From Candidatus Multivoradales bacterium (GTDB lineage: Bacteria; Acidobacteriota; Thermoanaerobaculia; Multivoradales; JAHEKO01): a stretch of 64,000 nt of DNA. Below the pieces are notes generated by a model. That model saw only the letters and a list, made by a program, of their open reading frames with translations, was not told the DNA's origin and searched no databases. The stretch lies in the NCBI GenBank assembly GCA_965223855.1, contig CBDCXM010000009.1, forward strand, positions 336,142 through 400,141, read 5' to 3'. This document shows positions 13,219 through 64,000 of the stretch, in pieces (position 1 is the stretch's first letter; every line of letters starts with the position of its first letter). Both the position numbers and the translations under genes were made by a program.

Positions 13219-13229
13219 GGAGCGAAGCC

Positions 13230-19641: not shown

Positions 19642-19825
19642 AGTCGCTAACCCGGACTTCTCACCAGGTTTCTGCTCCAGGTCCGTGACTTGTTGGAGAT
19701 ACGAGGCTCTTCGTCCTGAGCAGCGCAGGCGTAGCCGTAGCTACATCGAGGAGCGCAGGGACGGAGAAACGCAGTAGATCCAGCAAGATACGGGCCTGGA
19801 GTAGGGAGCTGGTGAGAGGTCCGGG

Positions 19826-24885: not shown

Positions 24886-25003
24886 GGCGTCTCTCCGTCC
24901 GGAGGCGAGGCTACCGCCGTCTCAACTCCCGGCGCCAGTACCGCGGGTGGGGTTGTCGTCCCCGGGACCGGGGGTGCCCGCCCGCGAGGATCTATCGACC
25001 TGC

Positions 25004-26404: not shown

Positions 26405-26507
26405 CGGCGAATCGTATCAACGGCTTCGCCCCACGACTGTGGCAAACGAGGCTTCTCTCGCGACCTGCGCCAGGTCGTCGTCTCCCCGTCTCGTAACATG
26501 GCCGACA

Positions 26508-28685: not shown

Positions 28686-28686
28686 C

Positions 28687-29403
28687 TCAGCGCTCGGAGG
28701 CGGCTTCGATCCGCCGGGCCTGCTCGAGCTGCGCCTCGATGTTGGCGAGCCAGGCACGGCCGTCGGCGGTGCGCGCCAGGAGTTGCATCGCCGGCTCGCA
28801 GTAGCGCTGGACGATCTTCGAGAAGAAGTGCGGGAAGTCCGCTTCGAGGTCCCGCGGGCTACCGTAGCCGAGGCGTTCATTGACGCCCGTTTCCTCGAAC
28901 TCGTAGTAGAGCGCCGGGTAGCGGCGGCGGGCGTGCGGCTCCGCCACCTGCCCGAGCAGATCGGCGGCGCGCGCGAGCCCCGGGAGGTCTTCGACCTCCT
29001 GGTAGGCGTCCTTTTCGGGCACCGGGAAACGGGTCCGATCGATGCAGGCGGTCATCCGCTCGACGTCGAGCAGCGGATGGCTCGCGAATCGCTCGCAGAC
29101 GAACTGGATGGCGCGATCGACGTGGTAAGGGCCGAGAGCGGCGTCGGTCGCCTCGAGGGGAAGCTCGACCACCGCGTCGCCGATCCCGGTCGCTCGGCGA
29201 CCCGGGTCGTCACCGCGGCACAGATCCGGCACGTAACCGATGTCGTGGCACAGGAGCGATGCGAGGACGTCCAGGCGATCGCAGGCCGGCACGGTTCCGC
29301 TCCGGTCGAGCCCTTCGAGGACCGCTTTGCCGACGAGGGTGACGAGCACCGTGTGGTGAGCGTTGTGGTAGAGCGCGTTGCACGAGGCCAGCCGCCCCAG
29401 CAC
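28687..29403 (-). CDS. HD-domain metal-dependent phosphohydrolase
   Basis: H...HD signature (YHNAHHT, LLCHDIGY). GTG 29403 as in the ORF track. The frame stays open upstream, so an alternative GTG at 29583 would add about 60 aa and overlap the OmpA-like gene end. Confidence 0.5.
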   Translation of the reverse strand: MLGRLASCNALYHNAHHTVLVTLVGKAVLEGLDRSGTVPACDRLDVLASLLCHDIGYVPDLCRGDDPGRRATGIGDAVVELPLEATDAALGPYHVDRAIQFVCERFASHPLLDVERMTACIDRTRFPVPEKDAYQEVEDLPGLARAADLLGQVAEPHARRRYPALYYEFEETGVNERLGYGSPRDLEADFPHFFSKIVQRYCEPAMQLLARTADGRAWLANIEAQLEQARRIEAASER

Positions 29404-47169: not shown

Positions 47170-47377
47170 CTCGAAATCTCCTCCGCGCCGATCTGTTGCG
47201 GCACCCGATGCTGTGTCGCCTCAACGAACAGAGCCTCGCCGAACTCTTGGGTGGCTCGCTCTCGAGGAGAGAACGGCCCTCGTGCGACGAGGGAACGATA
47301 GCAGCGACGCCTCTCACTGAACTCCGGCTCCGTGGCGTTGTAGTCTTCTCAGCAAATCTGTCGAATTGGAGAAGTTG

Positions 47378-48382
47378 ATGGACGTCGAGCGATACCAGCG
47401 CGCCGCAGCCAGTCCGGCGTTGTACCTCTGCCTGCTGGGCCTGGCACTCGGGGTCGCAGGGTGCCCTCCGACCACGGTCCCGCCGTCGGCCCCGCCGCTC
47501 CCTCCGGAGCTCGATTTCCCCGCCGCCTACAGGGTCCAGGCCGCCGGACAGGTCCAGGTGGACACGATCGAGCTGCCGGGGACCGCGACGATGGACTATC
47601 TCGTCTACCCGAGCGGTCGGGTGGTCGTCACGCATCTCGACGTCCGGGTCCCGGACCTCGACATCGTCGTCTACTTTCTCTGGTGGGAGACCGACCGAGA
47701 GCGGCTGCGATGCAATCGGATGCACCTGACCGAGCCGGTCGTCGCCAGCCTGGTCGGCGATCGGATCGATTTCGCTGTCGGATCGGCCGCGATGCGGGGG
47801 GTGTCGTTCTTTGAGCGCTCGCCCTCGGGTGATTGCTCAGGGCGCCACCGGCGACTCGAGGTTTCCAACGACGGCGTGTTCTCCGTCCTGCACGACCCCG
47901 ACATGCCGAAGTGGGAGATGCGTGCCGCCTTCACGGCAACCTTCGACGGCAACAGCGTGCCGCTCGACTTCCGACTCGACGGCCGGTTTCTGAACCGGCC
48001 GCCGATGGCGTCGATGGGCGTCGCCGAGGCGGGCACGACGAGCTGGGAGCTCATCGGCGAGGGATGTCCGGTCGCCCAGGAGGAGTCCAAGATCCCGCCG
48101 AACCGTCCGGAGGGGCTGGTGCTCGATCTGCGTTCCTTCTCCTACGACAACGACAGCCGCGAAAGCGAGACCCGCTTTCAGGTGAAGTTCCCGCGTGGAG
48201 ACATCAGCACCGAGCAGTGGGCCAAGTCGAGCGGCGGCAAGTACGAGTACCTGGGCGAGGGCCGTCTCCTCGGACCGGTTCTCTTCGAGGCGGGCAAGGC
48301 CCATTCGCTGATGCTGACCGTCACCGATCGCACCGGGGCCAAGGCCCGACAGATCTGCCAGTTCGAGGTTTCGCCGTCATGA
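47378..48382 (+). CDS. hypothetical lipoprotein
   Basis: ATG 47378 with GGAGA Shine-Dalgarno. Lipobox LALGVAGC. No recognised domain. Confidence 0.5.
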   Translation: MDVERYQRAAASPALYLCLLGLALGVAGCPPTTVPPSAPPLPPELDFPAAYRVQAAGQVQVDTIELPGTATMDYLVYPSGRVVVTHLDVRVPDLDIVVYFLWWETDRERLRCNRMHLTEPVVASLVGDRIDFAVGSAAMRGVSFFERSPSGDCSGRHRRLEVSNDGVFSVLHDPDMPKWEMRAAFTATFDGNSVPLDFRLDGRFLNRPPMASMGVAEAGTTSWELIGEGCPVAQEESKIPPNRPEGLVLDLRSFSYDNDSRESETRFQVKFPRGDISTEQWAKSSGGKYEYLGEGRLLGPVLFEAGKAHSLMLTVTDRTGAKARQICQFEVSPS

Positions 48383-49707
48383 GCTCACTCCTCTCCCGGA
48401 TCCACCCTCGCTCCTTCGCGCTGCCGCTCCTTCTCCTCGTCGGCGCAGTCACGCCCGGCTGCGGCTTCTTCATCGACGAGTTCATCCCGCGCGGCCCGTC
48501 GCTCGAGTGCACGGCTCAGGTCCGCAGCGCAGACGGCCATGTCGAGACGATCTCCAGCCTCACCCACCCCGACTTCGTGGAGATCGTCACCAGTGGCGGT
48601 ACCACCGAGACGGCACAGCTGCGCGAGTACTTCCTGTGTGAAGCCGGCAGTTGTCCCGCTCCCGATGCCTGCCCCCGCTTCTCCTCGATCGCCAACGCGG
48701 AGGCGGACTGGGAGTCCTGGCTCGGCCTGCGGGTTCGTGGCCAGACCGCCGAGCCGACCTCCGTGTTCGGCCAGTTCGAAGGCCCGTGGTGCCTCGTCCC
48801 GGACACGATCGTCTGCACGGAAGCGGCCTTCCAGGAAGGCTACGGCGATTGCGGGCTGCTCCCGTCCGTCGATCGGTTGCCGATCTGCCCGGACGCTCCG
48901 CCGCCACCGCCCGGCGATCCGTGCCTCGAGATCGCCTGCAGTGGTGGCGTACCCTGCACCTCGGTCGACTTCGGTGACCTGCCGCTCGGCGGCACGGCGA
49001 CCGAAACGGTGACCGTGAGCAACTGCGGCGCCACCGCCAGCCCCGATATCGCACTGGTGCTCGACGGCGAGATCCTGCCGGACCTCGCATTCGGACAGCG
49101 CGACTTCGCGGTCACCCGTAACGACTGCCTCCCCGACACCCCGGAAGAGATGCTGGCGGGCGAGGAGATCCTCACCAACCCGTTGGTCGACGCCGTCAAC
49201 TCGCGCTGCGAGTTCGACGTCACCTTCGCACCCGAGAACCCGCGCGAGCACGGTGCCGAGATCGCCTTCCGCAGCGACCTCGACCCGCGCCACCAGATTG
49301 TCCTCAGGGGCAACGGCCTCGGCGGAAGCCTCATCTTCGAAGTGCCCGATCTGCCCGACCCGCGGGCGATTCCGCCGGCGATCTGCGTCGATGCGGTCGT
49401 CGGGAGCTGCACGCGCAGCCGCATCGTCCGGATCACCAACACCGGCCCGGGTGCGGTCACGATCACCGACGTCCGTCTCGACCGCGGGGCTCCGAACTGG
49501 CAGGTCGTCATGCCGACGGGCGCGGCCCTGCCGGTGACCCTCGGGCCGGCCGATCCCCCCTTCGACGTCACGGTGCGCTGGTGCACGAGCGCCCCGCCGG
49601 AAGAGCTGGACGGTCAGCTGGTCATCGACACGAACTCTCCCGACACCCCGACCTTCCTGCTCGGGCTCAACCGACAGGGCAGCGGTACCTGCCCGCCCGG
49701 AACCTGA
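48379..49707 (+). CDS. hypothetical Cys-rich lipoprotein
   Basis: ATGA overlap with the preceding lipoprotein gene. Lipobox GAVTPGC. Many Cys, and a PPPPPGDPC stretch. Confidence 0.5.
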   Translation: MSSLLSRIHPRSFALPLLLLVGAVTPGCGFFIDEFIPRGPSLECTAQVRSADGHVETISSLTHPDFVEIVTSGGTTETAQLREYFLCEAGSCPAPDACPRFSSIANAEADWESWLGLRVRGQTAEPTSVFGQFEGPWCLVPDTIVCTEAAFQEGYGDCGLLPSVDRLPICPDAPPPPPGDPCLEIACSGGVPCTSVDFGDLPLGGTATETVTVSNCGATASPDIALVLDGEILPDLAFGQRDFAVTRNDCLPDTPEEMLAGEEILTNPLVDAVNSRCEFDVTFAPENPREHGAEIAFRSDLDPRHQIVLRGNGLGGSLIFEVPDLPDPRAIPPAICVDAVVGSCTRSRIVRITNTGPGAVTITDVRLDRGAPNWQVVMPTGAALPVTLGPADPPFDVTVRWCTSAPPEELDGQLVIDTNSPDTPTFLLGLNRQGSGTCPPGT

Positions 49708-50913: not shown

Positions 50914-51807
50914 ATGGAACCCGACGCAGCGATCGAAAAGGTCAAGAGCGCACTCGACGTGCCGCTGTTCTCGATCGCCGGCACCGAGATCACGGCGGCG
51001 ACCCTGACGGCGTTCTTCCTCATCGTCGTCGCTTCCTTCGTCATCTCGAAGTTGCTGCGCAAGGGCGTCGAGCGCTTCCTGACGGCGCGCGAGGTCGAAG
51101 ACCATGGAACCCGTGCGGTCATCTCGCGGCTGCTGCACTACGTGATCGTCTTCGTCGGCGTCGGCACGGCCCTTCACACGATCGGCATCAACCTGAGCGC
51201 TCTCTTCGCCGCCGGGGCACTCTTTGCCGTGGCGATCGGTTTCGCGATGCAGAACGTCACCGCGAACTTCGTCTCCGGCGTCATCCTGCTCGTCGAGCGG
51301 TCGATCAAGCCGGGAGACGTGATCGAGGTCAACGGCGCCATGGTGCGGGTGCGCGACATGGGCATCCGCGCCACGATCGTGCGCACGCTCGACGACGAGG
51401 ACGTGGTGATCCCCAATTCGGTGCTGGTCCAGGGTGAGGTCAAGAACTTCACCTTTCGCGACGACCTCTACCGGTTGCGGGTCGAGGTCGGCGTCGCCTA
51501 CGAATCGGATCTGCACCGGGTGCGGGACGTGCTCGAGGCGTGCACACGCAGCCTCGATTGGCGCAGCGATCAGAGGGACCCGGTCGTCCTGCTGACCCTC
51601 TTCGGCAGCTCCTCCGTCGACTACGAGATCTCGGTGTGGACCGAGAACCCCTGGAAGAGCCGCTCCGACCGCTCGCGCCTGCGAGAAGCGATCTGGTGGG
51701 CGTTCCAGGAAGCGGGCATCACGATCGCCTTCCCGCAGCTCGACGTTCACTTCGACGACCGGGAGGGGAAGAGGCCGGACTTGAGAAAGGTGCAGGCCTC
51801 GGAGTGA
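50914..51807 (+). CDS. mechanosensitive ion channel, MscS family (second paralogue)
   Basis: TM helices plus MscS beta-domain (GDVIEVNGAMVRVRDMGIRATIVRTLDDEDVVIPNS). Confidence 0.75.
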   Translation: MEPDAAIEKVKSALDVPLFSIAGTEITAATLTAFFLIVVASFVISKLLRKGVERFLTAREVEDHGTRAVISRLLHYVIVFVGVGTALHTIGINLSALFAAGALFAVAIGFAMQNVTANFVSGVILLVERSIKPGDVIEVNGAMVRVRDMGIRATIVRTLDDEDVVIPNSVLVQGEVKNFTFRDDLYRLRVEVGVAYESDLHRVRDVLEACTRSLDWRSDQRDPVVLLTLFGSSSVDYEISVWTENPWKSRSDRSRLREAIWWAFQEAGITIAFPQLDVHFDDREGKRPDLRKVQASE

Positions 51808-51890: not shown

Positions 51891-52871
51891 ATGAGCCTCA
51901 TCGGTTACCGCGGCGAGCGAATCGCCGAAGTCGAGACCGTGGATCTCGCCGATGTCCGCGACTACCTCGACCGCTTCGACGTCACCTGGGTCAACGTCGA
52001 TGGCCTCGGCGACGGCCGGCTCCTGCACGAGCTGGCGGAGCTCTTCGGCATGCACGCCCTGGCGCTCGAAGACGTCGTGCACGTAGGCCAGCGGCCAAAG
52101 GTCGAGATCTACGAAGAGGATCTCTTCATCGTCGCCCAGATGGTCTCGCTCGATGATCGTTCCACCGCCTCCGAGCAGATCAGTCTCTACCTCACCGACC
52201 GCTGCGTCATCACCTTCCAGGAGCGGCCCGGGGACTGTCTCGAGCCCGTACGGCAGCGATTGCGAGCCGGCCATCGACGGCGGCTGCGGGAGCGGGGCCC
52301 CGACTACCTCGCCTACGCCATTCTCGACGCGGTCATCGACCACTACTTCCCGACCCTCGAGGAGTTCCAGGACCGGCTGGAAGCGTTCGAGGAGCGCCTG
52401 CGCGAAGGGGTCGAGGATCCGCACGACGAGATCCGAGGCACCCGACGCGACCTGCAGACGCTGCGCCAGGCGATCCAGCCGACCCGCGACGCGACCCGCC
52501 TGCTGGCGGCGACCGAGCTGCCGCGAATCACCGCCGAGACTCAGACCTTCCTGCGCGATTGCCACGACCACGTGCTCGAGGCGGTCGAGCAGCTCGAATC
52601 GTGCCGCGAGATCGCCTCCGGGCTGATGGACCTCCACCTCGCCGCAGAGAGCCATCGGGCCAACGAGACCATGAAGGTGCTCACGCTGGTGGCGACGATC
52701 TTCATGCCGTTGTCGTTTCTTGCCGGCGTCTACGGCATGAACTTCGACTCGTCGCTGCCGGGCAACATGCCCGAGCTGTCGATCCCTTACGGCTACGTCG
52801 GCCTGCTCGGCATCATGCTGGTGCTCGCAGTCCTGATGCTGATCTTCTTTCGCAGGAACCGCTGGCTGTGA
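51891..52871 (+). CDS. corA: CorA-family magnesium/cobalt transporter
   Basis: Start at internal ATG 51891. C-terminal two TM helices carrying the YGMNF (GMN) signature. Confidence 0.75.
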   Translation: MSLIGYRGERIAEVETVDLADVRDYLDRFDVTWVNVDGLGDGRLLHELAELFGMHALALEDVVHVGQRPKVEIYEEDLFIVAQMVSLDDRSTASEQISLYLTDRCVITFQERPGDCLEPVRQRLRAGHRRRLRERGPDYLAYAILDAVIDHYFPTLEEFQDRLEAFEERLREGVEDPHDEIRGTRRDLQTLRQAIQPTRDATRLLAATELPRITAETQTFLRDCHDHVLEAVEQLESCREIASGLMDLHLAAESHRANETMKVLTLVATIFMPLSFLAGVYGMNFDSSLPGNMPELSIPYGYVGLLGIMLVLAVLMLIFFRRNRWL

Positions 52872-52995: not shown

Positions 52996-54336
52996 ATGAT
53001 CCGCAACCTCTCCCGCACGCTCCTCAGCCTCGCAGTTTTCGCCCTCACGGCCGTCCATGCAGGAGCCGACGACTGGCCGCAGTGGCGCGGCGCCGACCGC
53101 GACGGCAAGTCGGCCGAGACCGGGCTTCTCCAGAGCTGGCCGGAGGGCGGCCCGCCGCTCGCCTGGACGGCGGAAGGGCTCGGAAGCGGCTTCTCGAGCC
53201 TCTCGGTCGCCGACGGTCGCATCTATACGCTGGGCGACCTCGAGGACTCGCAGTACGCGATCGCCCTGAGCGAAGAGACGGGCGAGATTCTCTGGAAGAC
53301 CGCCATCGGCCCGTCGTGGGAGGACCGATTCCTCGGGCCCCGCTCGACGCCGACCATCGACGGCGACCACGTCTACATCATGAGCACCGAGGGCGACGTG
53401 ATCTGCCTCGAGGCCGCGACCGGCACCGAGAAATGGCGCCGCAGCCTGCCGAACGACTTCGAGAGCAACATGATGCAGGCGATGGGGTCGACCGACTGGA
53501 AATACTCGGAGTCGCCGCTGGTCGACGGCGACCGGGTGATCGTCACCCCGGGGGTCACGCCGGCAGCGCTGGTCGCGCTCGACAAGGCCACCGGAGAGAC
53601 GATCTGGCAGGCGCCGATCGGCCGCATCGGCTCGGCGGGCGCGCACGGCGCCGGCTACTCGTCGGTGGTGGTCTCGCACGGCGCCGGCGTCAAGCAGTAC
53701 GTGCAGCTCATCGGCCGCGGAGTGATCGGCATCGAAGCCGAGAGCGGGCGCCATCTGTGGGGATACAACAGGGTGGCCAACGACATCGCGAACATCCCGA
53801 CTCCGATCGTCGACGGCGACCATGTGTTCGCGACCACCGGCTACGGCACCGGCGCGGCGCTGATCCGAATCGTCCCGGCCGAGGAAGGGAGCGAGGACGC
53901 CGAGGAGGGAAAGCTCGCCGCCGAGGAGGTCTACTTCCTCGAAGCCGACACCTTCCAGAACCATCACGGCGGCGTCATTCTCCACGATGGCTATCTGTAC
54001 GCGGGCACCGGCCACAATCGGGGGTTCCCGGTGGCGGTCAAGCTGGACGACGGATCGGTGGCCTGGGGGCCGGAGCGCAACGACGGCAGCGGCTCGGCTG
54101 CGGTGGCCTACGCGGACGGGCGGCTCTATTTCCGCTACCAGAACGGGGTGGTGGTGCTGATCGAGGCGACGCCGGACGAGTATCGGGAGCACGGCTCGTT
54201 CGAGATTCCCGAGGTCGAGCACCCGAGCTGGCCGCATCCGGTGATCTCGGACGGCAAGCTCTATCTGCGCGAGCAGGACAAGTTGTATGTCTACGACGTG
54301 CGGGCGCCGGTGACGGAGGCGGCGGGAGCCTTCTGA
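52996..54336 (+). CDS. PQQ-like beta-propeller repeat secreted protein (BamB/YxaL-like), paralogue 1
   Basis: Start at ATG 52996 gives a signal peptide followed by the WPQWRG motif. Repeated propeller blades. Confidence 0.6.
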   Translation: MIRNLSRTLLSLAVFALTAVHAGADDWPQWRGADRDGKSAETGLLQSWPEGGPPLAWTAEGLGSGFSSLSVADGRIYTLGDLEDSQYAIALSEETGEILWKTAIGPSWEDRFLGPRSTPTIDGDHVYIMSTEGDVICLEAATGTEKWRRSLPNDFESNMMQAMGSTDWKYSESPLVDGDRVIVTPGVTPAALVALDKATGETIWQAPIGRIGSAGAHGAGYSSVVVSHGAGVKQYVQLIGRGVIGIEAESGRHLWGYNRVANDIANIPTPIVDGDHVFATTGYGTGAALIRIVPAEEGSEDAEEGKLAAEEVYFLEADTFQNHHGGVILHDGYLYAGTGHNRGFPVAVKLDDGSVAWGPERNDGSGSAAVAYADGRLYFRYQNGVVVLIEATPDEYREHGSFEIPEVEHPSWPHPVISDGKLYLREQDKLYVYDVRAPVTEAAGAF

Positions 54337-54632
54337 GGCTAGTCACCTGGGGCCGGGCGGGCCTTCGATGAGGAGAGGAACTCGGGTATTTCGAGCGGGG
54401 CCTTGCGCCGCTAGAGCCGGTCTCTGAGGAGCGTGGAAGCCGCGCCCGAGGGGGACGGCGCGCGTCAGGGGTGGGAGAACCCTCGACGCGCGCTCGCTCG
54501 CCTGCGCCGGGTACCCGCTCGATAGAAGGACGGCTTTCGGGGCTTGGCGAGAGCCCCCTCGGGCCCGGCTTCCACGCTCCTCAGAGACCTACCGCCCTTG
54601 TTCTTGCGGACCTCCCTTCGGCCCTAGGCCTG

Positions 54633-55949
54633 TCAGGGGGCGGCTTCGGCAACCGTATCCGCCTCCTCAGCAAGACAATAGAGAGAAGAGGATCCTCGGA
54701 GGTAGAGCTCGCTTCCCGCGAGGGCGGGCGAAGCGGCGAAGTCCTCGTCAAGCTGGTTCTCGGCCAGTACTTCGAACTCGGGGCCGGTGCCGAGGACGAC
54801 GGTCGTGCCGCCGCGGCCGACGATGTAGATGCGGCCGTCGGCGGCCACGAGGGAGGAGTAGACGCCGTCGATCCCCGGCAGGCGGACGGGGCCGAAGCGC
54901 TTCTCGCCGGTCTTCGCGTCGAGGCTCGTGAGGATGCCGGTGTTGACCTTGAGGAAGTAGAGCTGGTCGCCGTAGAGGACGGGTGACGGGACATAGGGAG
55001 TGTCTTCGTCGTACGACCAGGCGAACTCGTCTTCGGTGCCGGCGGCCTCGGGCCGGATCGCCTTGAAGGCGGCGCCGCGGAAGCCGCTGGTGGCGTAGAC
55101 GAGGCCGTTTGCGTAGATCGGCGACGGCACGACGTTGACGGTCTGGCCGCCGACCGCCCAGCGCTCTTCGCCGGTCGCGAGGTCGTAGCCGCGCACGGCG
55201 CCGGTGGCGCTGACGACCACCTCGGTCACGCCGTCGCGCTCGATGACGATCGGGGTCGACCACGAGGTGACCTCTTCGCGTTCGTGGCGCCAGCGCTCCT
55301 CGCCGCTGGTCTTGTCGAAGACGACGAGGAAGGAGTCGCCCTCGTGATCCCAGTTGAGGACGAGCGCGTCGCCCGCGAGCACCGGCGACGAGCCTTCGCC
55401 GAAGCCGCGGCGGGTGGCCATGTCACCCAGGTCCTTCGACCACAGAAGGTCGCCCTCGAGGTCGTAGACGTAGGTGCCCAGCGAGCCGAAGTGGGCGACG
55501 AGGACCTCGCCGTCGGTGACCGGCGAAGCCGACGCCCAGGAGGCGTCGGTGTGGGTCCCCTCGTGCGGTTCTTTCTCGATCGGGACGTGCTCCCACGTCT
55601 TCTCGCCGGTCGCCCGGTCATAGGCGAGGACGGTCATCCGCAGCGGGCCGTCGGGAGCGACGCCGCGCTGGCCTTCCTGCGGCCCGCTCGGAGCCCGGGT
55701 CGGCACCGCGGTGACGACGTAGACGCGCTCGCCCCAGACGATCGGCGAGCCGTGGCCGTAGCCGGGGATATCGGCCTTCCATCGCACGTTCCTCTCCTCC
55801 GACCACTCGAGCGGCGGCTCGGCGTCGGGAGCGGCGCCGCTGGCGAGCGGGCCGCGCCACTGCGGCCAGGCGGCCTCTCCGGCTGCGGCGAACGTCGCCG
55901 GCGTGAGCGCCAACGCGAGAAGAGCTGCAGTGACTCTGTTCGGTGCCAT
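54633..55949 (-). CDS. PQQ-like beta-propeller repeat secreted protein, paralogue 2
   Basis: ATG 55949 with GGAGG Shine-Dalgarno. Signal peptide then AAWPQWRGP. Same blade pattern as the neighbouring paralogues. Confidence 0.6.
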   Translation of the reverse strand: MAPNRVTAALLALALTPATFAAAGEAAWPQWRGPLASGAAPDAEPPLEWSEERNVRWKADIPGYGHGSPIVWGERVYVVTAVPTRAPSGPQEGQRGVAPDGPLRMTVLAYDRATGEKTWEHVPIEKEPHEGTHTDASWASASPVTDGEVLVAHFGSLGTYVYDLEGDLLWSKDLGDMATRRGFGEGSSPVLAGDALVLNWDHEGDSFLVVFDKTSGEERWRHEREEVTSWSTPIVIERDGVTEVVVSATGAVRGYDLATGEERWAVGGQTVNVVPSPIYANGLVYATSGFRGAAFKAIRPEAAGTEDEFAWSYDEDTPYVPSPVLYGDQLYFLKVNTGILTSLDAKTGEKRFGPVRLPGIDGVYSSLVAADGRIYIVGRGGTTVVLGTGPEFEVLAENQLDEDFAASPALAGSELYLRGSSSLYCLAEEADTVAEAAP

Positions 55950-56094
55950 CGGGAAGACCTCCACATGGTGAGTGAATCGGACGGCGATCGTACCGTGCCG
56001 ATTCGTCGTGGCTGCGGCACGGGTACACTGCACCTCCCATTCCGGGCGCGGTCTGCGGAACCGACTGCGCTCCTGCGGGAGAGGAGACGAATCG

Positions 56095-56646
56095 ATGGCA
56101 ACTGCTCAGAGTTCCGGCCTCGCGTGGCTGGTCTTCGTGTTCATGACCGTGGCGTCTTGGGGCGTCTACGGGATCTTCCTTCACAACGGCCAGACGGCGA
56201 TGGGCGACCCGGTCAACGGGCGCTACAAGGCGTTCCTCTTCGTCGGCGTCGCCTACTTCCTGACCGCGGTGCTGGCGCCGCTCGTGCTACTGAAGCTCCG
56301 CGGCGCCGAGTGGGCGATGCCCGCCTCAGGCATCACCTGGTCTCTGGTGGCGGGGATCGTCGGCGCCGCCGGGGCGTTCGGCGTGCTGCTCGCCTTCGGC
56401 GCCGGCGGCACCCCTGCTTCGGTGATGTCGCTCGTCTTCGCCGGAGCGCCGGTCGTCAACGCGATCGTCGCTCTGACCTGGCATCCGCCGGCCGGAGGCA
56501 TCGGCTCGATCCGCTGGCCGTTCTTTGCAGGCATCGTGCTCGCCGCGCTCGGGGGCTACCTCGTGACGGTGTTCAAACCGGCACCGGGACCGGCTCCCGG
56601 CTCCCCACCGAAAGCGCCGACCGAGGTCGCCTCGCAGCAGAAATAG
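56095..56646 (+). CDS. hypothetical integral membrane protein (about 5 TM)
   Basis: ATG 56095 with GGGAGAGGAG Shine-Dalgarno. Hydrophobic throughout. Sits between the propeller genes. Confidence 0.4.
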   Translation: MATAQSSGLAWLVFVFMTVASWGVYGIFLHNGQTAMGDPVNGRYKAFLFVGVAYFLTAVLAPLVLLKLRGAEWAMPASGITWSLVAGIVGAAGAFGVLLAFGAGGTPASVMSLVFAGAPVVNAIVALTWHPPAGGIGSIRWPFFAGIVLAALGGYLVTVFKPAPGPAPGSPPKAPTEVASQQK

Positions 56647-56769
56647 CCGGCGGTCGATGCCGGTCCGCATGCGGCGAGCCGCCTGCTAGAATCGGGCAGG
56701 TCGCTTTCCCCGGAAGACGCATCCGCGCCCTCCGAATCCACACCTCCAAGAGCCCACAAGGAGTCGCAC

Positions 56770-58980
56770 GTGCCAGCACGAATCAGGACGCTCTTTCTCT
56801 TCGCTACGGCGCTCGCGGTCGCCTCGACCACCGTCGCCGGTGACTGGACCCACTGGCGGGGACCGACCCGCAACGGCGTCTCCCCGGAGACCGGCTTGCT
56901 GGAAGCCTGGTCGGCCGAGGGGGAGAACCTGCTGTGGAGGGTCGAGGACTTCATCGGCCGCTCGACGCCGGTGGTGTTCGGCAACCGGGTGTGCGCCAAC
57001 GGGCGCGCCGGCGAGGGCGCCGAGCGGCAGGAGATGGTCGCCTGCTTCGATGCCGAGACCGGCGAGCGGCTTTGGGAGCGACGGTTCAACGTCTTCCACA
57101 CCTCGGTGCCGTGGACCCGTGTCGGCTGGGCCAACATCACGGCGGATGCGGAGACCGGCTATCTCTACGTCCAGGGGGTGGGCGGCCTCTTCCACTGCCT
57201 CGACAGTGCCGACGGCAGCATCGTCTGGTCGCGCAACCTGATCGAGGACTTCGGCTTCATGGAGGGCTACGGCGGGCGCACCCAGACGCCGGTCGTCGAC
57301 GAAGACAGGGTCATCGTGACCTTCGCCAACACCAGCTGGGGCGACGAAGGCAGGCCGCTCCACCGCCTGCGCGCCTTCGACAAGCGGACCGGGGAGCAGC
57401 TCTGGGTCGCTTCGCCCGCCAACTCGATGGCCGACAAGAACAGTCAGTCGACGCCGGCGATCGCCGTCATCGGCGGGCGGAGGCTGGTGATCCAGGGCAA
57501 CGGCGGCGGCTGGATCTACGCCGTAGAGGCTCGGACCGGCCGCGAGGTGTGGGGTTTCCACCTCAGCCAGCGCGGCATCAACACCTCGGTGCTGGTGGAA
57601 GGCACGACGGTCTATGCCATGCACAGCGAGGAGAACGTCGACGAGGGGACGATGGGCCGAGTGGTGGCGATCGACGCCACCGGTTCGGGCGACGTCACAG
57701 CGACCCACGAGCTGTGGCGCTCCGACATCGGCGCCGGCTTCACATCGCCCGCTCTCGCTGACGGCAAGCTGTTCGTCGTCGACAATTCCGCCAACCTCTA
57801 CGCCCTCGACCCGGAGACGGGAGAGGAGCTGTGGGAGCTCAACGTCGGTCGTGTCGGCAAAGGCTCGCCCGTGTGGGCGGACGGCAAGATCTACCTCACC
57901 GAGGTCAACGGCCGCTTCGCCATCGTCGATGCGAGCGGCGAGGAAGGGACTCTTCTCGACCTCGAGCAGCTGCGCGTCGGGCGCCGCCGGCCGGAGATCT
58001 ACGGCTCACCGGCGATCGCCAACGGGCGGATCTACTTCACCACCGACGCCGGGCTCTACGCACTCGGACAGGGCGACCCGAGCCCGGCGGCGACGGTAGA
58101 GCTCGACCTCGAGGAGCCGTCGATCCCCTCCGACACCGCCGCCGCCACGATTCGCGTCGTCCCGGGCGACCTCCAACTCGCCTTCGGCGAGACGGCCAGC
58201 TTCCGGGTGGATGCCTTCGACGAGCTCGGCCGTCGGCTCGGCTCGCGCCAGGCGGAACTCGCGGTGGAGGGCATCGAAGGCTCGATCGACGGTGACACGC
58301 TCACGGCAGGTTCACTGCCGGGCACCGGATCTGTCGTCGCCACCTTCGACGACATGACGGCGAAGGCCCGGATCCGCGTGGTCCCCTCGATCCCGTTCTC
58401 GGAGGACTTCGAGGGTACCGAGACCGGCTCCCGCCCCGGTTACATGCTCGGCTACCTCGCCCGCTTCGCCGTCGCCGAGCACGACGGCAGCAAGGTGCTC
58501 GCCAAGGGGCCGTCGCCGGTCAAGATCCACCGCCACATCACCTTCCTCGGCGCGCCGTGGCATGACAACTACACCGTCGAGGCGGACCTCAAGGCCGACG
58601 CCGAGAACCCCGAGAATCCCGATCTCGGGCTCATCAACGGCGGCTACACCATGGAGCTCCTCTCGATCGGCGCCCGTCCGGGTGCCCCTCCGGGGCCGAA
58701 GCTCCAGGTGCGCTCGTGGCAGGCGGGGCTGCGCATCGCCACCGATATCGAGTTCGACTGGACACCCGGTACCTGGTACCGGATGAAACTCCGTGTCGAT
58801 CAGCAGGAAGACTCGGCGCTCATCCGCGGCAAGGTGTGGCCGCGTGGCGAGGACGAGCCGGCCGACTGGTCGATCGAGGTCACCGACGCACTGCCGATTC
58901 TCTCCGGCGCCGCCGGGATCTCCGCCTACTCCCCCTCTTTCGTCTACTTCGACAACTTTCAGGTGAGTGAGAACGAATGA
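56770..58980 (+). CDS. PQQ-like beta-propeller secreted protein with C-terminal Ig-like and DUF1080/LamG-like domains, paralogue 3
   Basis: GTG start with AAGGAG Shine-Dalgarno. Signal peptide then GDWTHWRGP. The C-terminal 220 aa end in VYFDNFQV, typical of DUF1080 concanavalin-like domains. Confidence 0.6.
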   Translation: MPARIRTLFLFATALAVASTTVAGDWTHWRGPTRNGVSPETGLLEAWSAEGENLLWRVEDFIGRSTPVVFGNRVCANGRAGEGAERQEMVACFDAETGERLWERRFNVFHTSVPWTRVGWANITADAETGYLYVQGVGGLFHCLDSADGSIVWSRNLIEDFGFMEGYGGRTQTPVVDEDRVIVTFANTSWGDEGRPLHRLRAFDKRTGEQLWVASPANSMADKNSQSTPAIAVIGGRRLVIQGNGGGWIYAVEARTGREVWGFHLSQRGINTSVLVEGTTVYAMHSEENVDEGTMGRVVAIDATGSGDVTATHELWRSDIGAGFTSPALADGKLFVVDNSANLYALDPETGEELWELNVGRVGKGSPVWADGKIYLTEVNGRFAIVDASGEEGTLLDLEQLRVGRRRPEIYGSPAIANGRIYFTTDAGLYALGQGDPSPAATVELDLEEPSIPSDTAAATIRVVPGDLQLAFGETASFRVDAFDELGRRLGSRQAELAVEGIEGSIDGDTLTAGSLPGTGSVVATFDDMTAKARIRVVPSIPFSEDFEGTETGSRPGYMLGYLARFAVAEHDGSKVLAKGPSPVKIHRHITFLGAPWHDNYTVEADLKADAENPENPDLGLINGGYTMELLSIGARPGAPPGPKLQVRSWQAGLRIATDIEFDWTPGTWYRMKLRVDQQEDSALIRGKVWPRGEDEPADWSIEVTDALPILSGAAGISAYSPSFVYFDNFQVSENE

Positions 58981-60452
58981 ACCGCAACAGCCTCTTCGTC
59001 GTCGCCGCTCTCGCGGCTCTGATCGCTCTTCCCGCCATCGCCCAGGACGCGGCGATGTTCGGCAACGGCCCGCAGCGCAACATGACTTCGGATGCCACCG
59101 ACCTTCCCACCGAGTGGGACCTGGGGAGCGGCAAGAACGTGCTGTGGAAGCAGCAGCTCGGTTCGCAGTCCTACGGCGGTCCGGTGCTCTTCGACGACCG
59201 CATCTACGTCGGCACCAACAACGAAGCCGAGCGCAACCCGGCGATCACCGGCGACCGCGGGAACGTGATGGCGTTCAACGCCACCACCGGTGAGTTCCTG
59301 TGGCAGGCGGCTCACGCCAAGCTGACCTCGGGCCGGGTGCATGACTGGCCGCTCCAGGGGGTCTGCGCGGCGCCCTACGTCGAGGGCGACCGCCTCTGGT
59401 ACGTGTCGAACCGTGCGGAGATCATCGCCGCCGACGTCGACGGCTTCCGCGACGGTGAGAACGACGGACCGTACACCTCGGAGGAGCACAGCTCCGAGAT
59501 CGACGAGGATGTGATCTGGAAGGTCGACATGATCGGCGATCTCGACGTCTTCCCGCACAACCTGGCCGTCGGCAGCCCGCTGGCTGTCGGCGACAAGCTG
59601 TTCATCGTCACCGGCAACGGCGTCGACGAGGGACACATCAACATCCCTTCGCCCGACGCGCCGAGCTTCCTCGCCGTCGACAAGAACACCGGCGAAGTGC
59701 TGTGGACCTCGGACGCACCGGGGCCGAGCATCCTCCACGGCCAGTGGTCGAACCCGGCCTACGGAGTGATCGGCGGTACGCCTCAGGTGGTCTTCCCCGG
59801 CGGTGACGGCTGGCTCTATTCGTTCCACCCCGACTCCGGCGAGCTGCTGTGGAAGTTCGACTGCAACCCCAAGGACTCGATCTGGGAGCTCGGCGGCATG
59901 GGGACGCGCAACGCGATCATCTCGACGCCGGTGATCCACAACGACCGCGTCTACCTCGGCGTCGGCCAGGATCCCGAGCACGGCGAAGGGGTCGGCAACT
60001 TCTGGGTGATCGACGCGACGAAGCGCGGTGAGCTCGGTGCGGACGCGGTCGTGTGGCATCGCGGCGGGGAAGAGTTCGGCCGCACGATCTCGACGGCGGC
60101 GATCCACGACGGCATCGTCTACATCGCCGACCTCTCCGGCTTCCTCTACGCCCTCGATGCCGACACCGGCGAGCACTACTGGACCTACGACGCCTTCGCG
60201 GCGGTGTGGGGCTCGGCGTTCGTCGCCGACGGCAAGGTCTACCTCGGTGACGAGGACGGCGACATCGTGGTGCTCGAGGCCGGCAAGGAGATGAACCTGA
60301 TCGCCGAGACCAACCTCGGATCGGCGGTCTACACGACGCCGGTGGCGCGCGACGGCACGCTCTACATCGCCAGCCGCAACATGCTCTTCGCCTTCCAGGA
60401 GGGGGCGATGCTCGAGGCCGCCGAGGGCGGCGAAACAGCAGCGGCGCCGTGA
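58977..60452 (+). CDS. PQQ-like beta-propeller repeat secreted protein, paralogue 4
   Basis: ATGA overlap with paralogue 3. Signal peptide. Propeller blades (GDRLWYVS, DKLFIVTGNG, DGIVYIADLSGFLYALD). Confidence 0.6.
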   Translation: MNRNSLFVVAALAALIALPAIAQDAAMFGNGPQRNMTSDATDLPTEWDLGSGKNVLWKQQLGSQSYGGPVLFDDRIYVGTNNEAERNPAITGDRGNVMAFNATTGEFLWQAAHAKLTSGRVHDWPLQGVCAAPYVEGDRLWYVSNRAEIIAADVDGFRDGENDGPYTSEEHSSEIDEDVIWKVDMIGDLDVFPHNLAVGSPLAVGDKLFIVTGNGVDEGHINIPSPDAPSFLAVDKNTGEVLWTSDAPGPSILHGQWSNPAYGVIGGTPQVVFPGGDGWLYSFHPDSGELLWKFDCNPKDSIWELGGMGTRNAIISTPVIHNDRVYLGVGQDPEHGEGVGNFWVIDATKRGELGADAVVWHRGGEEFGRTISTAAIHDGIVYIADLSGFLYALDADTGEHYWTYDAFAAVWGSAFVADGKVYLGDEDGDIVVLEAGKEMNLIAETNLGSAVYTTPVARDGTLYIASRNMLFAFQEGAMLEAAEGGETAAAP

Positions 60453-61525
60453 GCGATCTCGCCTCCAGGGTCGAGGCTGCTCGGGAGCAGCTCGACGCTC
60501 ACGTGCGCGACACGGTCGCCTGGCACTTCGACCCGGAGACCGGCTGCCCGTTCTGGCTCGACTTCGCCTCGAAGCTCGACTTCGATCCGCGCGAACGGAT
60601 CCACGGCTACAAGGATCTCGCGGTCCTGGGACACTTCGAGGACGAGTGGCTCCGCGGCGGCCCGATCCGCCGCTGGGTGCCGAAGGGGCTGGCCGACAAG
60701 CCGCTCTACGTCTTCGAAACCGGCGGCTCCACCGGGCTGCCGAAGTCGCGCGTCAACATCGAGGACTTCCAGACCGACTACGAGCTCTTCAGCGACACCC
60801 TTTCCGACGAGACCTTCCCGAAGGGCGCCGACTGGTTGATGCTCGGCCCCACCGGGCCGCGTCGGCTGCGCCTCGCGATCGAGCACCTCGCTCAGCACCG
60901 CGGCGGCGTCGCCTTTCACGTCGACCTCGACCCGCGCTGGGTCAACAAGCTGATCAAGGCGGGCAAGCACCAGGAGATGCAGCTCTACAAGGAGCACGTC
61001 ATCGACCAGGGCTTGAAGATCCTGCGCGCCCACGACTCGGTCGAGTGCCTCTTCACGACGCCGAAGCTCCTCGAGGCGCTGTGCGAGAAGATCTCGCTCA
61101 CCAAGGCGGGCATCAAGGGGATCTTCTGCGGCGGCACCGAGATGAACGCCCAGTTCCACCGCTTCGCCCGCGAGGAGCTGGTGCCGGGGATCGACTTCCA
61201 GCCGACCTACGGCAACACGTTGATGGGCCTCGCCTGCAACAAGCCGTTCGAGCTCACCGAGAACTACGAGATCACCTACTACGCCCCGGCGCCACGTGCG
61301 ATCTTCGACATCGTCAACCCCGACGACCCGACCGAGACCGTCGGTTACGGCGAGACGGGGCGCGTCATGCTGACGACGCTCACGAAGGAGTTCTTCATGC
61401 CGCGCTTCCTCGAGCGCGACGAGGGCGAGCGGGCGGAGCCGACCGACCGGTTCCCGTGGGACGGGGTGACGAACCTGAGGCTCTTCCAGCGGTTGGAGAG
61501 TTCGGTGGTGGTGGGGGTGTACTAG
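60449..61525 (+). CDS. ANL-superfamily adenylate-forming enzyme (PaaK / F390-synthetase-like)
   Basis: GTGA overlap with propeller paralogue 4. P-loop-like ETGGSTGLPKS near the N-terminus. 358 aa, shorter than canonical PaaK. Confidence 0.45.
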   Translation: MSDLASRVEAAREQLDAHVRDTVAWHFDPETGCPFWLDFASKLDFDPRERIHGYKDLAVLGHFEDEWLRGGPIRRWVPKGLADKPLYVFETGGSTGLPKSRVNIEDFQTDYELFSDTLSDETFPKGADWLMLGPTGPRRLRLAIEHLAQHRGGVAFHVDLDPRWVNKLIKAGKHQEMQLYKEHVIDQGLKILRAHDSVECLFTTPKLLEALCEKISLTKAGIKGIFCGGTEMNAQFHRFAREELVPGIDFQPTYGNTLMGLACNKPFELTENYEITYYAPAPRAIFDIVNPDDPTETVGYGETGRVMLTTLTKEFFMPRFLERDEGERAEPTDRFPWDGVTNLRLFQRLESSVVVGVY

Positions 61526-61622: not shown

Positions 61623-62210
61623 GTGGCACAACAGCGGATCGACCGGCGGAGGACCCTCGCCAACCTCGCTGGTCAACAGAAGGGCTACTTCCTGGCATCC
61701 CAGGCCGTCGATGCCGGCTACAGCTATCAGGCCCAGAAGTACCACACGGATCGAGGCAACTGGATTCGAATTGATCGAGGCCTATACCGGCTTCGAGACT
61801 GGCCTGTCGGCCCATACGACGATCTGGTCCGCTGGTCACTGTGGAGCCGAGGCCGCGCTGTCATCTCGCACGAGACGGCACTCGACGTCCACGATCTCGG
61901 TGACGTCAACCCCAGTCGCATCCACCTGACCGTCCCCTCGACCTTCCACGCCAGGTCGGCTCAGGTGCACCTCCATCGCGCAGACCTCGACCCGTCCGAC
62001 ATCAGCGAACACGACGGATATCGAGTCACCACGCCCCTCAGGACCCTGCTCGATGCGGCTGTCAGCGATCTCGACCAGGACTACCTCACAGGCGCCGTCG
62101 ACGATGCCCGTTCCCGCGACCCGACCATCGCTCCCAGGCTTCTCCGGATCGCAGATGCGTTCGGGCCTCGCGCTGCCCTCCGTATCGAGAGAGCCCTCGC
62201 CGAACTGTGA
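61623..62210 (+). CDS. abiEi: type IV toxin-antitoxin AbiEi-family antitoxin / transcriptional regulator
   Basis: N-terminal winged HTH plus the characteristic C-terminal domain (sequence resemblance to AbiEi_4-type proteins). GTGA-coupled to the downstream nucleotidyltransferase. Confidence 0.65.
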   Translation: MAQQRIDRRRTLANLAGQQKGYFLASQAVDAGYSYQAQKYHTDRGNWIRIDRGLYRLRDWPVGPYDDLVRWSLWSRGRAVISHETALDVHDLGDVNPSRIHLTVPSTFHARSAQVHLHRADLDPSDISEHDGYRVTTPLRTLLDAAVSDLDQDYLTGAVDDARSRDPTIAPRLLRIADAFGPRAALRIERALAEL

Positions 62211-63073
62211 CCGCCTACGCCACTGCCGCCGCTCTCCGCCAGGCGATCGAAGAGCGTCTTCGCCATCGGTCCGAGACCACGGGAGAGAGTCTCGATCGTC
62301 TGCGACGCAGGCTCGTCTTTGAACGCCTGCTGGTTCGACTCCAGGAGTCTCAGCCTGGGAGCTGGATCCTGAAAGGAGGGATGGCGCTCGAACTTCGGCT
62401 TGGAGATCGAGCCCGAGCCACCAAGGATCTCGACCTGGCGCTACGAGAGAGCGAACCGACGGAAGAACTCGTGCTCACGAAGCTGGCGCAAGCAATCCAG
62501 ATCGAAGTCGATCAAGACCGATTCGAGTTCGAGATTCGCGGCATCCGGAGCATGGCGCCCCATGTCTCTCCCGACACTGTCTGGCGAGTCAACCTTCTCG
62601 CGAAGCTGGCAGGGCGGGAGTTCGGCTCGATCCGCGCCGACATCGTTACGCGAACCGACGAGATCGCGTCAACCGAGACTTTTCTGCCTACGCCCACCCT
62701 GGACATCCCCGAGTTGCAGACTCGCGAAGTGGAGATCGTCGATCCGAAACAGCACTTTGCAGAGAAGCTCCACGCGGTCACTCGTTCCTTCGCCAACCGA
62801 CCCAACACGCGCTCTCGAGACCTGGTCGATCTGGTTCTGTTGATCGAGAACGGCCTACGCGCCGATCAACGGCTCGCCAAGACACTCGCGCACGTCTTCG
62901 ACCACCGCGGCACTCACTCTCTGGAGGGCCCTTTGCCCGAACTCCCGGAGAGCTGGCGCCCGGAGTTCGACAGAGCCGTTCGAGACTTGCAACTCGGACC
63001 CAAGAGCCTCGATGAGGCCGTCGAACTCGTCGAGACCTTCCTGAGTCGGACTTTCTCCAACCCCGAAGGGTGA
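62207..63073 (+). CDS. abiEii: type IV toxin-antitoxin AbiEii-family nucleotidyltransferase toxin (DUF1814)
   Basis: DUF1814-like sequence (ILKGGMALELRLGDRARATKDLDLAL carrying the NTase Gx10DxD-type motif). Paired with AbiEi. Confidence 0.65.
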   Translation: MTAYATAAALRQAIEERLRHRSETTGESLDRLRRRLVFERLLVRLQESQPGSWILKGGMALELRLGDRARATKDLDLALRESEPTEELVLTKLAQAIQIEVDQDRFEFEIRGIRSMAPHVSPDTVWRVNLLAKLAGREFGSIRADIVTRTDEIASTETFLPTPTLDIPELQTREVEIVDPKQHFAEKLHAVTRSFANRPNTRSRDLVDLVLLIENGLRADQRLAKTLAHVFDHRGTHSLEGPLPELPESWRPEFDRAVRDLQLGPKSLDEAVELVETFLSRTFSNPEG

Positions 63074-63103: not shown

Positions 63104-64000
63104 CTACACCGGATAGACCTTCAGTACCTCGTCCCCGTAGTGGTTGATCACCTTGACGGCGATCTTCCCTGACTCGGGCTTGTCGAACGGGCGACTCTCG
63201 GTCCGGTAGAGGGTCGACCAGGCGTCCTCGTCGATCTCCGCCTTGAGCGCCTTCTTGAGCTTCTCGTAGGGCTTGTCGGCGCCGGTGAAGTAGGCATGAC
63301 GGACGAAGAAGCTCTCGCCGTTGTAGTCGGTATCGAGGAACCAACAGGCGATCTCGTCGGTGGTGCTGGAGCGGATCTCGCCAGTGGTCGGGTCGTAGAC
63401 GTCGAGACCGTGGATCTCGACCTGCATGCGGCCGCCCTCGACTTCGCGCAGCTCGATGTCCGGCTCGCCGAACACCATGAAGAGATTGCCGGCGCCGGTC
63501 TTCTTGAGGAGTTCCTCGCCCATCGAGAGATCGGGGTTCATCCGCACCAGCAGCACCGGCAGCTTGCCGTACTGCTTCGAGGCTTCGGCGATGAAACCTC
63601 GTTCCGCAGTCGCTCCTTCGGGTGAGATCGCCTTCGCCTTCTCGCTCGCGTGGGCATCGAAGGCGAAGCCGAGTACCAGCAGCAGGTCGAAGCCGACCCC
63701 CGCCACCGCCTCCTTGGCCGCCCCTTCGATCTGATCCTTGCCGACCGTACCGTGCTCGGGGCCGATCGCGATCGCCACGCGCTTTCTCTTGCCGTCGGCG
63801 TCCTCGTACTCGCCCGCCGCCTGCACCCAGGCGCCGGCGAACGGCTCGACGAAGTCGAACTCGAGCCGCTCCTCGCGGCGGGTGTTCTGGACCCCGGCCT
63901 TCCGCAGATTGTCGAGGATCATCGACTCGAACCCCTCGCCGCCGCGCTCGGCGGCCGCCGCCCGGCGTTCCTCGCCCTCCCCCGCCGGGCGTTCGGCCGA
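63104..64000 (-). CDS. hypothetical protein, C-terminal part (frame stays open to the window end)
   Basis: Minus-strand ORF ends at 63104. The same frame has no stop up to position 64000, so the N-terminus lies outside the window. No confident domain call. Confidence 0.4.
   Translation of the reverse strand, partial: SAERPAGEGEERRAAAAERGGEGFESMILDNLRKAGVQNTRREERLEFDFVEPFAGAWVQAAGEYEDADGKRKRVAIAIGPEHGTVGKDQIEGAAKEAVAGVGFDLLLVLGFAFDAHASEKAKAISPEGATAERGFIAEASKQYGKLPVLLVRMNPDLSMGEELLKKTGAGNLFMVFGEPDIELREVEGGRMQVEIHGLDVYDPTTGEIRSSTTDEIACWFLDTDYNGESFFVRHAYFTGADKPYEKLKKALKAEIDEDAWSTLYRTESRPFDKPESGKIAVKVINHYGDEVLKVYPV

Follow-up and report, generated by a model that had tools for sequence, protein, structure and literature searches.

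An EhpF-type adenylating enzyme encoded with predicted exported PQQ-like beta-propellers in a gene module conserved across bacterial phyla

EhpF is a phenazine-tailoring enzyme that a title cited in PMC3175449 presents as an unusual representative within the ANL superfamily of adenylating enzymes. It belongs, together with EhpG, to the D-alanylgriseoluteic acid pathway of Pantoea agglomerans, and the ehpF and ehpG genes are adjacent in Pantoea, Streptomyces and Proteus. Two-protein logic of this kind is also known from LuxE/LuxC, in which a synthetase that forms acyl-AMP and has no carrier domain hands its acyl product over to a reductase of the aldehyde dehydrogenase (ALDH) superfamily and the aldehyde is released. 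EhpF reportedly lacks the C-terminal subdomain, and Bera et al. in 2010 are said to have proposed that EhpF and EhpG together reduce a carboxylate to the aldehyde via an acyl-adenylate. In this study, we analyzed a 64,000-nucleotide stretch of DNA from Candidatus Multivoradales bacterium (Acidobacteriota; assembly GCA_965223855.1, contig CBDCXM010000009.1, positions 336,142 to 400,141 of the forward strand), hereafter the window. Six genes lie within its positions 52996-61525, namely four for pyrroloquinoline quinone (PQQ)-like beta-propellers (PropA to PropD), one for a small membrane protein and one for an adenylating enzyme of the EhpF type (hereafter ANL). They form the 5' half of an operon that is widely conserved in at least six bacterial phyla and horizontally spread, and that is cut short in the window, directly after ANL, by an inserted AbiE/type III restriction-modification defence island. 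No description of this module was found in the literature searched, and its members are currently annotated as hypothetical, 'PaaK-like' or 'BamB'. Every protein comes from a known superfamily, and the pair formed by ANL and its ALDH-fold partner is a separate and far more conserved clade than EhpF/EhpG, found in another genetic context.

The alignment of the window ANL with the EhpF crystal structure (PDB 3hgu/3l2k; E 1.7e-44) runs from end to end and pairs ANL residues 17-358 (of 358) with residues 22-366 (of 366) of the crystallised chain. Its GGSTGLPK and YGNT motifs are intact, invariant and common to EhpF, so that structure match and motifs (GG[ST]TGxPK and YGxT) together place it in the ANL superfamily; with the Pfam AMP-binding model it scored 26.8 against a cutoff of 29.9, just below. 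It is of the EhpF type, since it stops at the end of the N-terminal domain and has no A9/A10 C-terminal subdomain. Because the alignment with EhpF is end to end, 358 aa is the native length and not the result of truncation, and the orthologues have a constant length of 355-372 aa. An earlier annotation made from the letters alone (the sequence-only reading) had named a fragment or pseudogene as a possible objection; these two observations rule out both a pseudogene and a truncated PaaK.

Relatives of ANL number more than 8000, and none of the top 120 is less than 75% identical to it. Within its clade, identity across phyla is 67-88%, and 37% of the positions are at least 98% invariant in an alignment of 82 orthologues. 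Searches of GTDB species representatives gave 586 genomic matches, the best 80 of which were 66-77% identical and came from Poribacteria, Latescibacterota, Gemmatimonadota, Acidobacteriota (Blastocatellia, Thermoanaerobaculaceae and Polarisedimenticolia), Calditrichia and Phycisphaerae; KSB1 also carries a relative. The clade is tight enough to collapse, in a library clustered at 50% identity, into one full-length representative plus fragments, with a few next sequences at 40-44% and the EhpF-type proteins at 32-38%. Some EhpF-like proteins bear the PGAP label 'arylcarboxylate reductase', and plasmid homologues of ANL are annotated as phenazine biosynthesis proteins. Some proteins join an EhpF-like domain to a class III aminotransferase or to a Zn-dependent alcohol dehydrogenase (P0312, 824 aa; P0358, 725 aa), and an aldehyde product of EhpF-type enzymes would be consistent with such fusions.

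A total of 83 ANL-centred loci were mapped by tblastn with the proteins of the window and of its closest relative L001, and all of their open reading frames (ORFs) were clustered de novo; 70 loci had enough upstream flank to be scored for the propellers, and the ALDH count refers to 71 loci. The recurrent order was PropC-PropD-ANL-ALDH-FeADH-U373-radical SAM, in which FeADH is an iron-containing alcohol dehydrogenase, U373 a further propeller and radical SAM a radical S-adenosylmethionine enzyme. This series was often extended by another propeller (Prop405), a TonB-dependent receptor and either or both of a flavin monooxygenase and a PaaK-like ligase, and the full form also has an optional EamA-like membrane protein ahead of PropC. 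PropC and PropD stood directly upstream of ANL in 46 of the 70 loci, in most cases with overlaps or gaps of 0-60 nt, and orthologues were 39-80% identical among the phyla sharing this order (51-80% for PropD orthologues upstream of ANL). The coupling of propellers to an adenylating enzyme, proposed by the sequence-only reading, is therefore genuine and its clustering is conserved across phyla, although the four-propeller cluster described there is only the 5' part of a larger module. The closest relative, L001/L002 from a marine metagenome, has the same gene order (PropC 72%, PropD 80% and ANL 88% identical); PropA, PropB and the membrane protein are retained upstream there, and a Ser/Thr kinase gene has been inserted.

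The ALDH partner, a protein of about 470 aa that follows ANL in relatives and often overlaps it, was present downstream of ANL in 59 of the 71 loci, adjacent in 28 and elsewhere separated by 0.4-7 kb of inserted genes. It is homologous over nearly its full length to EhpG of Pantoea and its Streptomyces goshikiensis counterpart (28-31% identity, E 2e-31 and 5e-39), the alignment includes the GGxxC motif that holds the Cys, and the ehpF and ehpG genes show the same overlapping arrangement. The resemblance to LuxE/LuxC is one of analogy only: the LuxE/LuxC Pfam families were not listed for ANL (E<=0.01) or for ALDH (E<=0.1), and the module has no luciferase or LuxD. In the ORF clustering, FeADH was found in 34 loci, a PQQ_3 propeller in 24 and the radical SAM enzyme in 24, and the distal genes (flavoprotein, PaaK-like ligase and receptor) in 6-11 loci each. 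FeADH is a group III alcohol dehydrogenase; its best models are ErcA (244 bits) and lactaldehyde reductase, FucO (228 bits), and it reaches the cutoff of neither. With 275 bits, the TonB receptor exceeds the cutoff of 223.5 set for the siderophore-receptor model TIGR01783. For the flavoprotein, the CmlS halogenase and the QhpG/LodB cofactor maturases gave the best models. HemN/ChuW/HemW-like at about 170 bits, the radical SAM enzyme stays below all cutoffs; its 174 bits fall short of the 400 required for the haem-degrading ChuW/HutW group, to which it does not belong, and the likeness gives a loose hint that the substrate may be a propionate-bearing tetrapyrrole.

The four propellers of the window all pass the Pfam PQQ_2 model (PF13360, cutoff 27.6 bits) with 108.6 (PropA), 75.8 (PropB), 114.3 (PropC) and 93.5 bits (PropD), which bears out the earlier call of four propeller genes in 8.5 kb; at 23-26% mutual identity they are distant paralogues. 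U373 passes the PQQ_3/ACSF4-type propeller model PF13570 (273 bits, cutoff 133). All four N-termini are basic and then strongly hydrophobic, as in signal peptides, and have no Cys in the first 35 residues. The earlier description of the proteins as secreted holds as a prediction, made by eye and from hydropathy, and the term exoprotein goes further than that. Translated in all six frames, the 64 kb contains just three instances of the pattern W-x-x-[WFY]-[RH]-G, directly after the signal peptides of PropA and PropB (WPQWRG) and PropC (WTHWRG), as had been reported, and PropD has the degenerate MFGNGPQRN at this place. The W-P-Q-W-R-G motif recurs in further propellers of the related loci (96 ORFs), among them U373 and Prop405, which have a signal peptide and a WxxFRG or WPRYRG motif, so it marks this propeller group as a whole and not PropA, PropB and PropC specifically. 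PropA is 32% identical to the downstream Prop405 of the module, and its orthologue stands at the same position in L001/L002, as does that of PropB (64-66% identical); PropB-like genes also adjoin the module in L015, L037, L073 and L079.

Several described propeller families resemble these proteins. BamB (YfgL) is likewise an eight-bladed PQQ_2-type propeller, and in proteobacteria it has a lipoprotein signal peptide with a lipobox Cys. Tetrathionate hydrolase is an exported enzyme with a PQQ-like eight-bladed propeller and is not known to need a cofactor. In the ACSF4/AASDH protein of eukaryotes, an adenylating enzyme and a PQQ-type propeller (PF13570, 'Beta-alanine-activating enzyme, beta-propeller') are fused in one cytosolic protein with a carrier domain, whereas the present module pairs the two as separate genes and its propellers have signal peptides. 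Against the BamB equivalog models, PropA-D scored 32-73 bits with TIGR03300 (cutoff 285; PropA 56 bits) and 26-60 bits with NF008351 (cutoff 423). PQQ-dehydrogenase models gave at most 54 bits (TIGR03075, cutoff 480) and 27 bits (TIGR03074, cutoff 833). PQQ alcohol and sugar dehydrogenases and the 'acido-empty-quinoprotein' family (TIGR04528) share the repeat type, but the matches are weak (17-59 bits against cutoffs of 480-830) and the propeller part is 440-490 aa here as against about 550-780 aa. No window propeller qualifies as BamB or as a PQQ dehydrogenase, and the objection that these might be ordinary BamB homologues thus falls away. Hallmarks of the PQQ dehydrogenases are the PQQ and Ca/Ln ligand residues and a vicinal disulfide (PMC13088180); in PropC, C75 and C92 are invariant yet non-adjacent.

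An AlphaFold model of PropC built from an alignment of 46 orthologues (predicted local distance difference test score, pLDDT, 90; predicted TM-score 0.90) matched BamB (E 6e-18) and tetrathionate hydrolase (E 9e-16) best in Foldseek searches with its propeller. The hydrolase of Acidithiobacillus ferrooxidans (PDB 6l8a, 7cqy) was also found by sequence (E 1.8e-12), although identity is about 15% and no sulfur-metabolism genes were noted among the annotated neighbours; the match indicates that a propeller of this type can be a cofactor-free enzyme. Invariant polar stretches of the 46 PropC sequences include GYGGRTQTP, DKNTQSTP, the acidic loop HSEENxDEG and GRVGKGSP, and R64, R170, Q172, N224, Q226, N271 and K364 are invariant at '[ST]P' strand starts. 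The PropD loop VGQDPEHGEG (aa 328-338, window 59958-59990), invariant in 55 orthologues, occupies a propeller position equivalent to that of HSEENxDEG (PropC aa 285-293, window 57622-57648). These invariant acidic and His-containing loops may form a metal or ligand site, and the invariant polar residues of both proteins, judged from the alignments, are best read as a putative conserved binding or active site.

Residues 450-736 of PropC, modelled separately with a pLDDT of 93.5, form two predicted domains. One is Ig-like and matches the Big_2-CBM56 domains 7r3t/7quz in Foldseek, with no HMM match; the other (about aa 541-736) is modelled as a ConA-like lectin/glucanase beta-sandwich resembling the galactocerebrosidase lectin domain and CBM66. 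The Ig-like and LamG-type assignments of the sequence-only reading are thus upheld and its DUF1080 assignment is not: the C-terminal 276 aa (aa 461-736) matched no Pfam or NCBIfam family at E<=0.1 or 0.01, DUF1080 included, PF06439 was in none of the 120 PropC orthologues listed, and the two structural matches are better ones.

The small membrane protein noted earlier among the propellers is also real, with hydropathy segments at residues 6-30, 44-71, 79-106, 107-129 and 141-163, and it had no Pfam or NCBIfam match. Its gene lies directly upstream of PropC in L001 (83% identical) and L026 (69%) as well, and a homologue in L073 (39%) gave a weak full-length EamA match (E 0.0015), which makes the 183-aa protein a candidate half-size DMT/EamA-like permease.

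The explanation that we favour, with a rough probability of about 0.42, is that the exported propellers handle an external carboxylated compound and that ANL and its partner reduce the carboxylate. The propellers, being exported and not lipoproteins, would operate in the periplasm or on the cell surface, where they would bind or process a carboxyl compound that is probably glycan-associated, and PropC might be anchored or targeted by its lectin-like tail. The compound would be imported by the TonB-dependent receptor and the small permease, after which the EhpF-like ANL would adenylate its carboxylate and, because it has no thioester-forming domain, would load the acyl group onto the catalytic Cys in its EhpG-like ALDH-fold partner. 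This partner would release the aldehyde with NAD(P)H, the Fe-ADH would turn the aldehyde into the alcohol, and the HemN-like radical SAM enzyme would add a further modification. We favour utilisation because the propellers are the most numerous component, because one of them carries lectin and Ig domains, because the neighbours in Poribacteria are sulfatase, peptidase, dioxygenase and lyase-like genes, and because no scaffold-forming biosynthetic enzyme is conserved. The modification or ligand-activation role that had been suggested from the coupling to an adenylating enzyme needs correction, since an EhpF-type ANL paired with an EhpG-like ALDH in relatives points to carboxylate reduction and not to ligation or protein modification.

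Several observations count against this explanation. The EhpF/EhpG reductase mechanism is reportedly a proposal with no demonstrated reaction, and the 64-kb window contains no homologue of ALDH, FeADH or the radical SAM enzyme. PropC-PropD pairs 53% identical to those of the window occur with no ANL within 10 kb in L088 and L089. Of the 83 ANL loci, 15 lack any propeller within 6 kb, most of them from Blastocatellia and other Acidobacteriota, and where the flank is long enough some of these have one only 7-10 kb downstream, past GT4 glycosyltransferase and MacB-type ABC genes; the association between propellers and ANL is strong but not obligatory. These exceptions are what would be expected if ordinary PQQ_2 paralogues, which are numerous in these phyla, stood beside an independent EhpF/EhpG-type reductase operon with no functional link. 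We consider this unlikely, given the PropC-PropD-ANL order with its tight spacing in 46 of 70 loci and orthologues 39-80% identical. The exported U373 and Prop405 are moreover interleaved with the cytoplasmic enzyme genes and overlap them, and ANL loci without PropC/PropD are still flanked by other PQQ_2 genes (L008, L058-L061, L068, L072, L073, L076 and L079). That the propellers are BamB orthologues or paralogues serving outer-membrane protein assembly is very improbable. The fold of PropC is closest to BamB, but the scores of 32-73 bits stand against equivalog cutoffs of 285 and 423, the lipobox Cys is absent, each locus has four to six such genes, one of which encodes lectin and Ig domains as well, and the operon partners are cytoplasmic oxidoreductases, with no bam genes seen among the neighbours.

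As the direction of the pathway, import-and-reduce and make-and-export both fit: a siderophore-type receptor, a HemN-like radical SAM enzyme that is possibly a class C methyltransferase, a flavoprotein resembling a halogenase, and EhpF/EhpG are characteristic of biosynthetic clusters, too. A biosynthetic or cofactor function, in which the cytoplasmic enzymes would build a small molecule (such as a metallophore, signal or cofactor) for export or for use or binding by the propellers, with the TonB receptor taking it up again, is a serious rival with a real though minority chance of being correct. EhpF and EhpG themselves belong to the biosynthesis of an antibiotic (a phenazine), class C methyltransferases of natural-product pathways are found among the HemN-like radical SAM enzymes, and the best models of the flavoprotein and the siderophore-receptor match of the TonB receptor point the same way. 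BamB has recently been captured by PQQ probes (PMC13088180), so such propellers may bind small redox ligands. The conserved set, however, holds no nonribosomal peptide synthetase, polyketide synthase, terpene synthase or phz genes, the flavoprotein, PaaK-like ligase and receptor occur in few loci, and a utilisation locus is the better match for the lectin and Ig domains of PropC and for the sulfatase, peptidase and lyase-like genes nearby in Poribacteria. A more speculative form, which we hold to be distinctly unlikely, is that the module makes or salvages a small organic, possibly metal-binding or redox, ligand that is loaded on the exported 'empty' PQQ-like propellers, as PQQ is with quinoproteins; EhpF/EhpG-type enzymes, FeADH, the radical SAM enzyme and the flavoprotein would then tailor the ligand, the siderophore-type receptor would recapture it, and the HSEENxDEG and VGQDPEHGEG loops would form the binding site. 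Least credible of all is a remnant of a phenazine-type or aromatic antibiotic cluster in which ANL would be a true EhpF orthologue acting on phenazine-1,6-dicarboxylate. EhpF is the sole solved homologue and the plasmid homologues carry phenazine annotations, but ANL is 31-35% identical to EhpF-type proteins as against 67-88% inside its own, very tight clade, no phzA-G homologue is among the conserved gene clusters of the 83 loci, and the surroundings (exported propellers, Fe-ADH, radical SAM enzyme and TonB receptor) are not those of EhpF/EhpG.

The module is of interest because it gives fixed genetic partners, and thereby an experimental handle, to a subset of the PQQ_2/BamB-like propellers, which in Acidobacteriota, Planctomycetota, Poribacteria and related phyla, mostly uncultured, rank with the families without known function that have expanded most. 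Its ANL represents the barely studied EhpF type without a C-terminal domain, with exceptional conservation between phyla. Its pairing with ALDH would carry the two-protein type of carboxylate reduction beyond a single antibiotic pathway and into environmental and sponge-symbiont genomes by the thousand, and identification of the substrate would annotate several thousand 'hypothetical proteins' and could reveal a common environmental compound. The value of the present window is tempered by its holding only the front half, while the breadth of the module and the conservation of ANL raise the interest of the module itself to moderate or good.

The features of the cluster and of the defence island are listed in Table 1.

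Table 1. Coordinates of the propeller cluster, the adenylating enzyme gene and the adjoining defence genes in the window.
Feature	Position	Strand	Description
PropA	52996-54336	+	Exported PQQ_2-type beta-propeller (predicted), 446 aa; WPQWRG at aa 27-32
PropB	54633-55949	-	Exported PQQ_2-type beta-propeller (predicted), 438 aa; WPQWRG after signal peptide
Small membrane protein	56095-56646	+	183 aa, five hydrophobic segments
PropC, whole gene	56770-58980	+	736 aa
PropC, N-terminal part	56770-58140	+	Signal peptide, WTHWRG (aa 26-31), eight-bladed BamB-like/tetrathionate-hydrolase-like propeller (predicted)
PropC, Big_2-like Ig domain	58141-58389	+	About aa 458-540; from model and Foldseek
PropC, ConA-like lectin/glucanase beta-sandwich	58390-58980	+	About aa 541-736 (modelled); 3' end is the ATGA overlap with PropD
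PropD	58977-60452	+	Exported PQQ_2-type propeller (predicted), 491 aa; degenerate N-terminal motif, VGQDPEHGEG loop
EhpF-type adenylating enzyme (ANL)	60449-61525	+	358 aa, without C-terminal subdomain
AbiEi	61623-62210	+	Pfam AbiEi_4; PADLOC 227 bits
AbiEii	62207-63073	+	Pfam AbiEii; PADLOC 248 bits
Type III methyltransferase gene, 3' part	63104-64000	-	PADLOC MTase_III 246 bits, model positions 717-981 of 983

AbiEi and AbiEii make up a type IV toxin-antitoxin pair foreign to the module. AbiEi begins 97 nt after the ANL stop codon, where ALDH normally stands, and the type III methyltransferase gene is represented by its 3' third, with the frame open to the end of the window. The ALDH, FeADH and radical SAM partners of this genome either lie beyond the window or have been lost. 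The junction between ANL and ALDH is a frequent insertion point elsewhere too, as in L041, where it holds genes for a transposase, AbiEi and a TonB receptor. Towards the sequence beyond the window, JGI metagenome contigs contained no exact match to a 53-mer from 63881-63933, and look-ups of the exact products of ANL, PropD and the last ORF gave no record.

The depositor gene calls, all on one 3.2-Mb contig, give lengths identical to ours for PropC, PropD and ANL, and the chaining of these genes had been described correctly, by an ATGA overlap at 58977-58980 and a GTGA overlap at 60449-60452. PropB is convergent with PropA and divergent from the membrane protein gene. The window has a high G+C content of about 68%. 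An Rfam scan of the whole window found nothing at the gathering score and so gave no riboswitch clue to the ligand. Between 52500 and 62500, an uninformative promoter scan found no sigma-70-like site, and six terminator-like sites were found where 3.7 were expected, none of them between PropC, PropD and ANL, which is likewise uninformative.

Individual loci carry further genes within or next to the module. L003, L006, L007, L010 and 12 other Poribacteria loci have a gene for a 233-aa Vgb-lyase-like/NHL-type propeller between ANL and ALDH (e.g. L003:11211-11912), and a YhgA-like transposase-related gene lies between PropD and ANL in L003, L006 and L007. In L004 (7811-9964) and L005, both from Calditrichia, this place is taken by a 717-aa ankyrin-repeat/PQQ_2 fusion. 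The variant context of L057 (Blastocatellia; 8502-9922 and 12576-19711) has genes for an AIR-synthase-related protein and a deaminase upstream of ANL, whereas a PQQ_2 propeller appears downstream only after a GT4 glycosyltransferase, a protein of formamidase type and a MacB-type ABC exporter. The PropC-PropD pair of L088 and L089 adjoins a Tricorn-like S9 peptidase and is preceded by ribosomal protein L31/L33 genes and a tetratricopeptide repeat protein; a 386-aa gene following the pair in L088 was considered as a diverged ANL and rejected by BLASTP.

Upstream of the cluster, the window encodes a resistance-nodulation-division (AcrB-family) efflux pump at 16450-19641 (+), near which the long ORFs 12711-16610 (-) and 24872-28804 (+) had no Pfam match. 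At 47366-49707 (+) there are overlapping-frame ORFs for apparently Pro-rich proteins with hydrophobic N-termini, adjoined downstream by a thioesterase-like ORF on the opposite strand; ORF 47833-49707, the one of this group that was scanned, had no Pfam match. Just upstream of PropA, and outside the conserved module, lie genes for an MscS-type mechanosensitive channel (50914-51807, +) and a CorA Mg2+ transporter (about 51900-52871, +). Two large multihaem c-type cytochromes of 1069 aa (32852-36061, +) and 526 aa (38547-40127, +), with matches to c554/c7/c3 and MtrC-like domains, suggest a locus for extracellular or periplasmic electron transfer.

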